A program made the translations under genes and the position numbers. The notes under the pieces are model-generated. The model ran no database searches, was not told where the DNA came from, and saw nothing but the letters and a program-made list of their open reading frames with translations. From NCBI GenBank assembly GCA_964016885.1, contig OZ024743.1, positions 29,884,001 to 29,948,000 of the forward strand: DNA of 64,000 nucleotides, in the 5' to 3' direction. Source of the DNA: Eledone cirrhosa. Its lineage: Eukaryota. This document shows positions 10,958 through 16,058 of the stretch, in pieces (position 1 is the first letter of the stretch; every line of letters begins with the position of its first letter).

Positions 10958-13762
10958 TCGGTTTCAATAAATATGATAAAGGATGGTAATGGAATGACTT
11001 TTGCTAATGTTACATAAAAATGTTTTAGATCAAATTCACGCAGGATCGACTATATATCTGGACAAATAATTACCTTTCTTTTTAAACCATCACGAGTTCT
11101 GCTGAGAAGTCGACTGTCGTTGTGCGGGTTTTGAAACAAATGAGTTCTTCTACGATAAGAGTTTGCTGGAGAAGGAGGCGCAGTTAGTTGACTCCGACAG
11201 TGTTTCTTAAGGCACAACTTATCTGCCAGCCGTGATATTACTTCCAACCCGACTGCGTATGTCACTCCTGGAATCCTACTACCACATGAATGGTTTTCAT
11301 TTACCACCATTTATTCGCACAGAAATACTCGGACATTCGTGTAAAGTGATCAAGGCAGCAAGAAACTGACTTTCGTATCCACCAAAGACGTTTCGGAATG
11401 GAGAAACCCATGGCAATTCATATACACCCAAGCCTCAAATTAAAATGTTTTCATAGACACGTAATAGGAGGAATGTTTTTTTTTATTTACAAAAACTGAA
11501 ATATAGCTGTTGTAATTGTAATATTCAGAGAGTAAGAGCAATAGAAAATAAGAGATTAATGTATAGAAACAGAATACAATAGATTGTTGTTTCCTATTAG
11601 TAGTCAGTAGGTGCTTGTGTTCAACATGTGTGATATACCCGCGGATAGTGTGACACAAGTGGTTGCATTGTCTACAAGATTGATTTGTATTAGTTTTACT
11701 TGCCTTAATTCTCTCCAATAGAATAACAACTAGTTAAACAATATTTTCTGCTAAGTTAACGCCAGCACTAAATCAGGTGGTCTTGTTCCATTCCTATTAA
11801 ACCATTCGAGCATAACCACCTGGCTTCCATCGAGTGTAGATTTTGGTTTATGTAGAATTCATAATTAACAGCAGTACATGACTGAAATAGTAGAATTCCA
11901 GAGTAAATATAATGCAGCACTCAGACATATCCGTTTACATTCAGAGCACAAACTCCTCCAGGATCGTTGTTACCTTTAATATATTTTAGGTGAAATAAGA
12001 ACCGTTCTGGAATCAAAAGATCAAATATACGAGCTAGGATTCAAATCGAATCACGTCTCTCACGTCGATGTTGATTTTATCACAATAGTAACTAGAATAT
12101 TATCATTGTTGAAAAAAATCAAGAAATATGTAAAGTAAAAGTGTGTACAAATATATTCGACGTAGAAGAGATAACTTGAGTATAATCAAATTAATAAGAG
12201 AAATATAATTATATTTTCTCTTACTGTGTTATAATCATATTGTTCAAATTATCCAAAGTACAGAAGATTATTAATTATATTTGTTCTCAACTTGAACACA
12301 ATCAGTAGGAAATCTGTACCTTTAACACACTACTATCTTGTTCAACATTGTCCTAACATTAAACTTTATTTAGATCAGACTTCTTGTGTTCAGTTAGTAG
12401 TGAACATTACCTGACATATGTCATGTAAATAATCTGCTGATTATCTGTGTTGGGAAATACCTTTAGTGCACAGGTCAACTAAATCAATAATCTAACCTAA
12501 TCCAATCAGTATTAAGAGGCAATCTGAAGATAAGTTCCCAACATCGCTTGATATATATGCTTTTTAATGAGGAGATAATCAAATTAACCCTTCAGTATTT
12601 ATTCTAACTATATGACCTCTTCTTCTACACAGCAGCGATAGAAATGTTTGAAATACGAGTTCAGTAAAAGGATGAGTGTAAAATATCAAGAACAATTCAG
12701 ACTGATAAAGAGTGGGGGATGAATTCGCTTAAGAGAGTAATAGAATTGATTTGAAATAGAGGAAAAGATGTGTGTAAGAAACTTTTCGAGAGAAATACAG
12801 ATCAAGATTACTAAGTGACATAGTTTGCTAGAAAGACGTGTAGCACTGCTTAATTCAATTTGTGTCAGATACTTCATGACTAGTTTAAAATTCAACAGTT
12901 CAGTGCGTGTGTTGAAATACCATCAAGTATTCATTATTTGATTCCAAGTAGAATGTTTGTAAAATGAAGTAACTATTGGTATATATATATATATATATAT
13001 ATATATGTCTGTGTGTGTGTGTGTGTGTAAGTATATATATATACATTTTTGGATAGGTTCCTATACCTCATGCCTCTATTGTTAAAACGTGCGATTGGCG
13101 ATACGGTAAGAATCTTTTTTATACTTCTCACCATATGTCACTTTTGGTGGTCTTATTCGCGCCAAACTCCAACCTGGTACTTTCGAAAAACCGCGAAGCA
13201 GAATTATTGTAATTGACTTAAATTAATTTAAGATTAAATTCGGTGATATCCAGGGTGACAAGAGGGAAAATGTCAAAATTGAAGATTCGTGCATCGTTAC
13301 ATAGAATGTACTAATCATGGAATCATCATATAATGTAGTTTCCTACTATAAACGCCATCACTTTTTACGGGTCCTATACTAGTATATATGTATATATATA
13401 TATATATATATATATATATTTATATATATATACATATATATATATATATATTTATATATATATATATATATATATATATATATATAAGTATGTATGTATA
13501 CGTACATACATATATGTATACAGACGTACAGTAGCATGCATATATATATATATATATATATATATATATATATATATATATATATATATATATATATATA
13601 TATATGCATACAGGTACACATACATATATGTACGCATCAGTTTAGCGGACGCTTATTATAGCGCCCGCTTTGTTCGTTTGTAAACAAACTGAACAGCCTG
13701 AATTTATGCCGCACGGTGTTAAGGCAACCACGTCACCTTTTTGTTCAACACTGACACAGGAA

Positions 13763-13803
13763 CGATGTACTAGTTTCAAGCTTGTTAGCTATCATCAGCA
13801 CCG
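13763..13803 (-). ncRNA. Minimal type I hammerhead, array copy 1
   Basis: cggtg CTGATGA t-agct-aaca-agct-t GAAA ctag TA catcg. Palindromic actagt stem III, GUA site. Confidence 0.8.
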
Positions 13804-14237
13804 GATACCCATCTGCCAGGTAGTTGAACGTTCGAAAGTATATACTTTCCTTATGAAAATTAACGGCTGAGCAGCCTAATTTGCATATCGAGTGAGTTAA
13901 ATCGGTCAGGCGCACCGAAAACGATGAGTTGTAATAAAATGAAAACGAAATTTCATTTATCACTCTTAGTACGGCACTTACTTAAATTTAAGTATGTATG
14001 TATACGTACATACATATATGTATACAGACGTACAGTAGCATGCATATATATATATATATATATATATATATATATATATATGCATACAGGTACACATACA
14101 TATATGTACGCATCAGTTTAGCGCCCGCTTATTATAGCGCCCGCTTTGTTCGTTTGTAAACAAACTGAACAGCCTGAATTTATGCCGCACGGTGTTAAGG
14201 CAACCACGTCACCTTTTTGTTCAACACTGACACGGGA

Positions 14238-14280
14238 ACGATGTACTAGTTTCAAACTTGTTAGCTATCATCAGCACCGT
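14238..14280 (-). ncRNA. Minimal type I hammerhead, array copy 2
   Basis: acggtg CTGATGA tagctaacaagttt GAAA ctag TA catcgt. Confidence 0.8.
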
Positions 14281-14753
14281 ATACCCATCTGCCAGATAGT
14301 TGAACGTTCGAAAGTATATACTTTCCTTATGAAAATTAACGGCTGAGCAGCCTAATTTGCATATCGAGTGAGTTATATCGGTCAGGCGCACCAAAAACGA
14401 TGAGTTGTAATAAAATGAAAACGAAATTTCATTTCTCACTCTTAGTACGGCACTTACTTAAATTTAAGTATGTATGTATACGTACATACATATATGTATA
14501 AAGACGTACAGTAGCATGCATATATATATATATATATATATATATATATATATATATATATATATATATATATATATATATATATATATATATATATGCA
14601 TACAGGTACACATACATATATGTACGCATCAGTTTAGCACCCGCTTATTATAGCGCCCGCTTTGTTCGTTTGTAAACAAACTGAACAGCCTGAATTTATG
14701 CCGCACGGTGTTAAGGCAACCACGTCACCTTTTTGTTCAACACTGACACGGGA

Positions 14754-14796
14754 ACGATGTACTAGTTTCAAACTTGTTGGCTATCATCAGCACCGT
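14754..14796 (-). ncRNA. Minimal type I hammerhead, array copy 3
   Basis: Same as copy 2, with one stem II substitution. Confidence 0.75.
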
Positions 14797-15233
14797 ATAC
14801 CCATCTGCCAGATAGTTGAACGTTCGAAAGTATATACTTTCCTTATGAAAATTAACGGCTGAGCAGCCTAATTTGCATATCGAGTGAGTTAAATCGGTCA
14901 GGCGCACCAAAAACGATGAGTTGTAATAAAATGAAAACGAAATTTCATTTCTCACTCTTAGTACGGCACTTACTTAAATTTAAGTATGTATGTATACGTA
15001 CATACATATATGTATAAAGACGTACAGTAGCATGCATATATATATATATATATATATATATATATATATATATATATATATATATATATATATGCATACA
15101 GGTACACATACATATATGTACGCATCAGTTTAGCGCCCGCTTTGTTCGTTTGTAAACAAACTGAACAGCCTGAATTTATGCCGCACGGTGTTAAGGCAAC
15201 CACGTCACCTTTTTGTTCAACACTGACACAGGA

Positions 15234-15276
15234 ACGATGTACTAGTTTCAAACTTGTTAGCTATCATCAGCACCGT
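15234..15276 (-). ncRNA. Minimal type I hammerhead, array copy 4
   Basis: Same as copy 2. Confidence 0.8.
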
Positions 15277-15797
15277 ATACCCATCTGCCAGATCGTTGAA
15301 CGTTCGAAAGTATATACTTTACTTATGAAAATTAACGGCTGAGCAGCCTAATTTGCATATCGAGTGAGTTAAATCGGTCAGGCTCACCGAAAACGATTAG
15401 TTGTAATAAAATGAAAACGAAATTTCATTTCTCACTCTTAGTACGGCACTTACTTAAATTTAAGTATGTATGTATACGTACATACATATATGTATACAGA
15501 CGTACAGTAGCATGCACATATATATATATATATATATATATATATATATATATATATATATATATATATATATATATATATACATATATATATATATATA
15601 TATATATATATATATATATATATATATATATATATATATATGCATACAGGTACACATACATATATGTACGCATCAGTTTAGCGGACGCTTATTATAGCAC
15701 CCGATGTGTTCGTTTGTAAACAAACTGAACAGCCTGAATTTATGCCGCACGGTGTTAAGGCAACCACGTCACCTTTTTGTTCAACACTGACACAGGA

Positions 15798-15839
15798 ACG
15801 ATGTACTAGTTTCAAGCTTGTTAGCTATCATCAGCACGT
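15798..15839 (-). ncRNA. Minimal type I hammerhead, array copy 5
   Basis: Same core; 1-nt deletion in stem I. Confidence 0.75.
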
Positions 15840-16058
15840 ATACCCATCTGCCAGATAGTTGAACGTTCGAAAGTATATACTTTCCTTATGAAAATTAACG
15901 GCTGAGCAGCCTAATTTGCATATCGAGTGAGTTAAATCGGTCAGGTGCACCGAAAACGATGAGTTGTAATAAAACGAAAAGCCGCACTAAGAGTGAGAAA
16001 TGAAATTTCGTTTTCATTTTATTATATATATATATATATATATATATATATATATATA

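Follow-up and report, generated by a model that had tools for sequence, protein, structure and literature searches.

The 64,000-nucleotide (nt) stretch of the Eledone cirrhosa genome analysed here (the window; contig OZ024743.1, positions 29,884,001 to 29,948,000) carries at 13485–16024 a tandem array of hammerhead ribozyme units, which is one insertion of a dispersed, high-copy retrozyme family of the class that lacks long terminal repeats (non-LTR). The pattern of its insertion ends suggests, indirectly, that the family is likely to be mobilised in the manner of Penelope-like elements, and we consider it probable that the array is a non-coding hammerhead repeat inserted into a (TA)n tract by the reverse transcriptase (RT) and endonuclease of an autonomous Penelope-like element. 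The non-LTR retrozyme class and every component of the system already have precedents; new here is a retrozyme family with unusually clear Penelope-type ends together with a candidate captured promoter of the small nuclear RNA (snRNA) type. A full-text literature search found no publication that describes this family, nor one that reports a U6-type motif in any retrozyme; the family is possibly already catalogued in repeat databases.

An original prediction from the sequence of the window described five tandem units of 476–564 nt, each with one minus-strand hammerhead whose stem III is the palindrome ACUAGU. All of this was confirmed: the hammerheads are of type I, the five H17 positions, each in a GUA triplet, are 476, 516, 480 and 564 nt apart, ACUAGU forms stem III in 5/5 units, and the order CUGAUGA, stem II over a U·U apposition, GAAA, ACUAGU and GUA triplet recurs in every unit (Table 1; monomer positions are numbered from q1, the first base after the cleavage site). 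A strict hammerhead descriptor caught four of the five ribozymes, and the fifth, with its 1-nt deletion in stem I, was recognised by alignment. The first four units have a 5-bp stem I, and at least two consecutive hammerheads are complete, as expected of a non-LTR retrozyme. The proposal that the units differ mainly in an internal (TA)n held for its length (66, 38, 78, 58 and 126 nt), but alignment also revealed an extra 16-nt deletion in unit 4, a stem II mismatch in unit 3 and the stem I deletion in unit 5, such that the five ribozymes are not equally intact. The tgca reported on both sides of each tract is present in the array, but not as a family-wide feature: the upstream tgca is nearly private, with CA following the upstream anchor in 5/6 matches in the window against 8/95 elsewhere, and neither flank is conserved.

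No stop-free stretch of at least 150 amino acids (aa) overlaps 13485–16024, and an autonomous Penelope-like element was rejected because no open reading frame (ORF) for RT and GIY-YIG endonuclease is present in the array. A plant LTR retrozyme, which carries a type III hammerhead in two LTRs, was ruled out by the type I topology and the tandem units. The family is dispersed over many loci and the array is not a chance occurrence, because an exact pattern joining the upstream octamer motif discussed below, the ribozyme core and GAAACTAGT gave at least 16,203 matches in this 3.0-Gb genome, which is rich in TA microsatellites and retrotransposons, and none in a reversed control. A pattern excluding U at position 10.1 gave 9,533 matches, against one in its control, and revealed the more distant families C and D–I; both totals count units, overlap partly and do not represent independent origins, and the families may share one ancestor. 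DNA searching of the same genome returned 1,917 candidates, of which the best 40 scored correspond to 31 loci including the window (full-length identity 96–100%); being best matches, these loci are biased towards young copies. No LTR organisation was seen among the 31 loci, primer-binding sites and polypurine tracts not having been searched for separately.

Unit lengths across the family are 430–560 nt. Subfamily B (367 candidates) is 12–20% divergent from family A, to which the array belongs, as measured on 70 segments after filters that dropped C and A′. The more distant family C has a 466-bp unit and forms arrays of at least 30 units (G000:C1:5738349-5751969; L154–L176); its stem II has a canonical G-C at the base, and a long (TA)n is lacking. 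Families D–I (L177–L194) carry the octamer motif 91–106 nt before the core and have differing palindromic stems III. The family is also present in contigs from organisms labelled A and C (sequencing runs of unknown kind). Runs X1 and X2, treated as not independent, match the unique flank of the window with 0 differences and even depth, and no empty-site joint was found among the matches listed.

Rfam matches to the ribozymes are weak (HH9 only below threshold, at 16–18 bits against a gathering score of 52, plus microsatellite-driven microRNA matches), and the ribozyme call therefore rests on the core consensus and on covariation. RNAalifold predicted 85 pairs on 13 aligned units from A, B, A′ and C, with two-sided changes in 26 of them; these counts overstate independence and weaken the argument to that extent, the set comprising four related families rather than 13 independent sequences. 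In the named helices 89.9% of cells are paired, compared with 82.2% in shuffled and 24–61% in slid alignments, helix 5 having been entered one column off in this test (46% paired; RNAalifold position 177–182/187–192). Changes on both sides affect four of the five pairs of stem II and three pairs of the long-range helix, and one pair of stem I occurs as G·U, U-A and U·G variants among the families. With one representative per family, 6/7 core columns and 8/10 GAAA-UH columns are invariant; a figure of 64/64 intact cores is circular, the units having been chosen by similarity, and was not used. Calculated folding energies put the closing of stem III in the monomer at +5.4 kcal/mol relative to the open form and the ACUAGU duplex at −4.8 kcal/mol, values such as would be expected for dimer-type hammerheads (PMC4209133). 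The description of the units as retrozyme-like with dimer-type hammerheads is thus upheld, since the stems covary in four related families with the core kept and the duplex is favoured over a monomeric stem III. Ribozyme cleavage and the release of monomers are predicted here from folding and covariation.

The U·U at the base of stem II (positions 10.1/11.1), noted originally as atypical, is present in 5/5 units but was rejected as a special feature: the same apposition is described for axolotl HHR_Amex2, whose cleavage improves in dimeric form (PMC7229834), and it is not conserved in the sister families. Among the 13 aligned units this position is G-C in five, C-G in one, unpaired in six and a gap in one. 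The internal (TA)n spans 6–116 nt in family A (median 34; 79 units), 8–88 nt in B (median 16; 62 units) and at most 8 nt in C; where long, it forms the enlarged apex of an AT-rich hairpin that is itself conserved. Pairing with the target, or formation of the 5′ junction, was rejected as its main role, given the short tracts of B, the lack of any tract above 8 nt in C and the fact that most apparent 5′ ends inside (TA)n are other elements inserted there (L031, L033, L038, L047, L055 and L059); the internal tract thus also draws other TA-targeting elements.

At the 31 loci, copies end in (TA)n at q293–299 (the short end) or q356–358 (the long end), 60 nt apart, and never at the cleavage site. 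Every one of the 22 inverted insertions that could be resolved pairs a long end with a short one; they come from 21 of the 31 loci, 16 being contiguous and 6 bridged by inference over nested insertions, and 10 loci were unreadable. The window array fits this rule, its short end lying at 13485 and its inverted arm stopping at q352, and the ends of families B, A′ and C fall at homologous columns, the tail of C measuring ~70 nt. Truncation at the 5′ side and an inverted 5′ copy recur in the family; the 44-bp 5′ inversion of the array, reported originally, is real (15980–16023) and, far from being peculiar to this array, represents the usual Penelope-type insertion structure of the family. Insertions sit in (TA)n, where a target-site duplication, which in non-LTR retrozymes exceeds 4 bp when present, cannot be read. 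The family thus shows the pattern described for Penelope elements, in which partial tandems occur together with an inverted copy of the 5′ part and with a tail confined to one end (PMC8557442). In the purified Penelope system two internal RT start sites bound the tail, and both target strands are cut and extended, no difference in start site between the strands having been observed (PMC11167929); the strict long/short rule goes slightly beyond that system. A fold-back origin of the inversion was rejected as a general explanation, the inner breakpoints of the arms often lying >100 nt apart (judged by eye). Termination by RNA polymerase III (Pol III) was rejected as setting the long end, since the long ends of family B fall ~5 nt beyond a T6 run and the avoidance of T runs is not significant.

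Elsewhere in the window, two inverted pairs of Penelope pseudo-LTR (pLTR) ends carry hammerheads. The pair at 18720–19145 (H17 at 18853 and 19099; stem III ATGCGCAT) ends in (TA)n with a long end on one side and a short end on the other, and its pLTR also follows a Hydra-type RT/endonuclease fragment in L060. The pair at 56500–56990 (H17 at 56560 and 56818; stem III ATATATAT) also has one long and one short end.

In the life cycle that we favour, the snRNA-type promoter would start transcription 10–15 nt before the hammerhead of the same unit, and therefore a complete unit would be regenerated from tandem copies only. Pairs of hammerheads joined through ACUAGU would cut read-through multimers into monomers, and a host ligase would close the monomers into circles, which would be stable since a lone hammerhead folds poorly. 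A Penelope enzyme would then nick both (TA)n strands and begin reverse transcription at internal positions of the RNA, using the short site for one strand and the long site for the other, and the joining of the two 5′-truncated complementary DNAs would produce the main and the inverted arm. We infer the circles from related retrozymes, those of coral, mussel and axolotl yielding them in abundance (PMC7229834); in sequence, the junction of such a circle is identical to the junction between tandem units. Identical units with private variants occur in L057, and also in L034, L036 and L042, as rolling-circle copying predicts.

A number of observations count against this scheme. The units of the window differ by 0.8–2.7% (6–7% for the deletion unit), and mean divergence within arrays (1.6%) is not below that between arrays (1.4%). 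Hammerhead cleavage is unneeded for insertion in the purified Penelope system, where uncleaved RNA is the main substrate (PMC11167929), and 8/9 Xenopus retrozyme dimers are reported without in vitro cleavage (preprint 10.64898/2026.07.22.740005). No terminal sequence shared with autonomous families was found in 35 Hydra and 25 Neptune-like loci, the matches being of low complexity or TA-adjacent. All four junctions of the window array carry one change that is absent from 44 other family A segments, and the seven units of L046 follow the order X-Y-X-Y-Z-W, which suggests a dimeric template or local duplication. Given its heterogeneous units, the window array is therefore not a one-pass copy of one circle; either its template was a multimer of mixed units, or the array changed once it had been inserted.

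An alternative is that the family is mobilised by Penelope enzymes but copied from uncleaved linear read-through multimers, the hammerhead serving to trim or regulate the RNA and arrays growing also in place by unequal exchange, with no circles involved. Penelope insertion in vitro without hammerhead cleavage (PMC11167929), the heterogeneity and shared junction change of the window array, the unit order of L046 and the lack of any 3′ end at the cleavage site all fit such a route. However, the core and stems are kept with compensatory changes in A, B (12–20% apart) and C, which implies selection for the ribozyme, circles are abundant in the coral, mussel and axolotl relatives (PMC7229834), and some arrays do have identical units; we regard copying from linear multimers as unlikely.

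It is more improbable still that the units are the pLTR of an undiscovered autonomous Penelope-like element, left as 5′-truncated tandem remnants with no life cycle of their own. Their ends and inversions are the same as those of the pLTR fragments in the window, Xenopus retrozymes match pLTRs (10.64898/2026.07.22.740005), and our sampling of autonomous elements covered two clades. Yet up to seven complete units stand in a row in family A (L046) and at least 30 in C, and at the 31 A loci the unit runs into no ORF, except for a direct Hydra RT junction in L060, where the pLTR belongs to a different family. The octamer motif, moreover, was not found in pLTR-type hammerhead clusters or linked to Hydra ORFs. 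We give almost no credence to an ordinary satellite or an assembly artefact in which the hammerhead and octamer matches arose by chance. Although Rfam scores fall well short of the threshold, long tracts of TA are prone to error and no array-spanning long read was seen, the ends are fixed, the stems covary, thousands of copies are dispersed, and the array itself shows no sign of misassembly, its units carrying distinct variants and similar arrays occurring at other loci.

The preferred cycle includes a promoter, for which the candidate is the 12-nt octamer motif TATGCAAATTAG, found 89 nt upstream of the hammerhead core in each unit. Host genes for U6 (three distinct promoters), U6atac and RNase MRP carry TATG[CG][AT]AAT[TG]AG at −77/−78, with a TATA box 47–49 nt later. 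The motif is present in 5/5 distinct U6, U6atac and MRP promoters with intact upstream regions, and is not at the expected place in two further U6 and seven U6atac loci, which look like pseudogenes or interrupted copies. Its columns are invariant (12/12) across A, B, A′ and C, the next 31 columns keeping 17, and one of 2,000 shuffled units contains it. In 727,791 bases of fetched loci the motif precedes 94/109 hammerheads of A/B, 12/13 of C, 5/5 of D and 1/1 of D′ (the fractions for C, D and D′ being circular, as these families were found via the motif), and 0/17 in other hammerhead clusters, several of which are Penelope pLTRs. It is not linked to Hydra ORFs, the one match coming from a neighbouring retrozyme copy. 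In families G and H the TATA-like box follows at 48–49 nt, which is the host U6 spacing. TCAGC lies 26 nt before the TATA box, a geometry like that of U1/U2 (TATA 23–28 nt later), which would place the start ~74 nt downstream of the motif and immediately ahead of stem I. Taken together, these comparisons make it rather probable that the motif is part of an snRNA-type promoter, with RNA polymerase II (Pol II) appearing somewhat more likely than Pol III.

There are also grounds for caution about this promoter. The argument is one of motif comparison, and the motif is absent upstream of U1, U2 and RNase P, where TCAGT occurs at −56 to −58 instead. The octamer-to-TATA spacing is 43 in A/A′/C, compared with 47–49 in host Pol III genes, and the TATA-like box is variable in sister families. 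T-run avoidance is not significant (179/1,000), and the best Pol II-type core site, at +17 in 7/11 family representatives, is equalled in score by 40% of shuffles. A plain U6-type promoter is disfavoured by the TATA position and because templates must cross several T4–T6 runs, so that transcription could not stop at the earliest of these. When the unit was aligned locally with the regions upstream of U6 and U2, scores stayed within the shuffle range, the motif having come from positional comparison. The host snRNA promoters themselves are compact, with the octamer at −78 (U6/U6atac/MRP) or TCAGT at −57 plus TATA (U1/U2), and a shared element near −260 (L061–L063, L088, L096 and L127–L137). The RNase P RNA gene (L255, 1200–1500) has an upstream U1/U2-type TCAGT core and a distal TACCTCCCTT with no U6-type motif, which suggests that this animal transcribes its RNase P RNA in the Pol II manner.

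Candidate partner enzymes are present in the same genome. Intact Hydra-type ORFs of 713–719 aa show RWK, DKT and CxCX5C motifs, and a young Neptune-like family has a CX4CxxC linker, a CCHH-type endonuclease and open frames of up to 1,407 aa; we take the latter to be Neptune-like from the features of that clade. Both ends of the Neptune-like family lie in (TA)n and are likewise 60 nt apart. Tail length makes this family a lead, but the match may be due to chance, since the tail of family C is ~70 nt. In L060 (G000:C1:36249600-36257600), a retrozyme copy is fused to a Hydra-type RT region without a TA tract; deletion, or a template switch between retrozyme and Penelope RNA, is proposed for this junction.

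The family resembles described metazoan non-LTR retrozymes (PMC7229834; 10.64898/2026.07.22.740005) in its non-coding tandem units with a type I hammerhead and short palindromic helix III, and in its AT-rich, highly self-paired and dispersed arrays that coexist with autonomous Penelope-like elements. Its units measure 430–560 nt, against reported ranges of 170–400 nt (PMC7229834) and 51–972 bp (10.64898/2026.07.22.740005), and it differs in its expandable internal (TA)n, in targeting (TA)n without visible target-site duplication, and in that the Penelope tail and 5′ inversions are seen directly. The preprint derives vertebrate retrozymes from pLTRs, 24/57 Xenopus families having Repbase matches (10.64898/2026.07.22.740005), whereas no sequence match to the pLTRs examined, and no such origin, was found for the present family. 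Likenesses to Penelope-like elements of the Hydra, Neptune and Naiad groups (PMC8557442, PMC11167929) include 5′ truncation, partial tandems, the inverted 5′ copy, the one-end tail, the (TA)n target and the palindromic helix III, and non-autonomous Chlamys elements also take multicopy head-to-tail forms (PMC8557442). In contrast to the described Penelope-like elements, there is no ORF, the tail is 60 nt (~70 in family C) rather than 30–40, and no 3′ similarity to an autonomous family was found here. Schistosome Sm-alpha is a tandem hammerhead repeat similar to a short interspersed element, with a promoter at the 3′ end of the cleaved unit, such that single copies cannot propagate; its transcription is reported to be by Pol III (PMC6765202, PMC2220036), whereas the motif here matches U6-type upstream elements.

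Newt satellite 2 offers a further comparison, being of another lineage and sequence. Its promoter is said to include an octamer. Like the present family it is a tandem dimer-type hammerhead repeat, and its promoter is reported as snRNA-type and transcribed by Pol II (PMC2220036, PMC6765202), whereas the promoter here is predicted from comparison with host genes. Penelope-type ends are not described in the newt passages of these two papers.

Mobilisation of animal retrozymes has so far been argued from co-occurrence and pLTR similarity (PMC7229834, 10.64898/2026.07.22.740005); in the present family the signature of Penelope is borne by the insertion ends themselves, start sites can be placed to the nucleotide, and a single genome holds both young copies and intact candidate enzymes. 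That a long end is always paired with a short one sharply limits the ways in which Penelope inversions could arise, and the promoter motif suggests how non-coding retrozymes come to be transcribed, a situation that would mirror that of newt satellite 2 in a family of unrelated sequence. A broader and more doubtful proposal is that the >25,000 units (16,203 plus 9,533 pattern matches, in part overlapping) form a superfamily that does not derive from pLTRs and that unites a captured host snRNA-type promoter, a dimer-only hammerhead and a 60–70 nt structured handle directing the Penelope enzyme to two fixed sites, strictly one per target strand. If this were true, the tandem or circular form would let an upstream promoter travel with the retroposon, and the strict long/short rule would reveal an asymmetric RT dimer. 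The host snRNA promoter elements are also useful for building a U6 promoter tool for this host.

Table 1. Features of the retrozyme array and its target tract (window coordinates)
Feature	Position	Strand	Details
Main arm of insertion, ~5 head-to-tail retrozyme units	13485..15979	-	5′-truncated at 15979; short 3′ end at 13485
Inverted arm	15980..16023	+	44 bp of the 60-nt tail; stops 4-6 nt before the usual long 3′ end
(TA)n target tract, short end	13383..13484	.	
(TA)n target tract, long (inverted) end	16024..16058	.	
Hammerhead 1	13763..13803	-	type I; H17 at 13768; 5-bp stem I; 4-bp stem II over U·U; palindromic stem III
Hammerhead 2	14239..14279	-	H17 at 14244
Hammerhead 3	14755..14795	-	H17 at 14760; stem II mismatch, 3 bp
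Hammerhead 4	15235..15275	-	H17 at 15240
Hammerhead 5	15799..15838	-	H17 at 15804; stem I lacks 1 nt in its 5′ strand
12-nt octamer motif TATGCAAATTAG	13876-13887, 14352-14363, 14868-14879, 15348-15359, 15911-15922	-	once per unit
TATA-like box	13836..13847; repeats at 14312, 14828, 15308, 15871	-	starts 43 nt after octamer motif start
Internal (TA)n	13540-13605, 14044-14081, 14520-14597, 15036-15093, 15516-15641	.	apical part of AT-rich hairpin, expanded
Predicted long-range helix closing the 3′ domain of the unit	14184..14453	-	strands ~14184-14192 + 13969-13977 (next unit downstream, RNA sense); one per unit

Other parts of the window are also rich in mobile elements. Positions 1–790 hold a broken GIY-YIG-like endonuclease fragment on the minus strand, then a hammerhead whose H17 is at 539, and then a partial copy in inverted orientation. 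At 24900–29600, 35900–40400 and 50100–53700 there are non-LTR retrotransposons in fragments, which have endonuclease and RT domains (RVT_1 in two tested frames). The right flank of the array (16041–18300) is another high-copy repeat ending in (TA)n, with an inverted copy at 55539–56131. The left flank (13050–13385) is a low-copy repeat that ends in CTAG just before the TA tract, which would suit the 3′ end of a Helitron.

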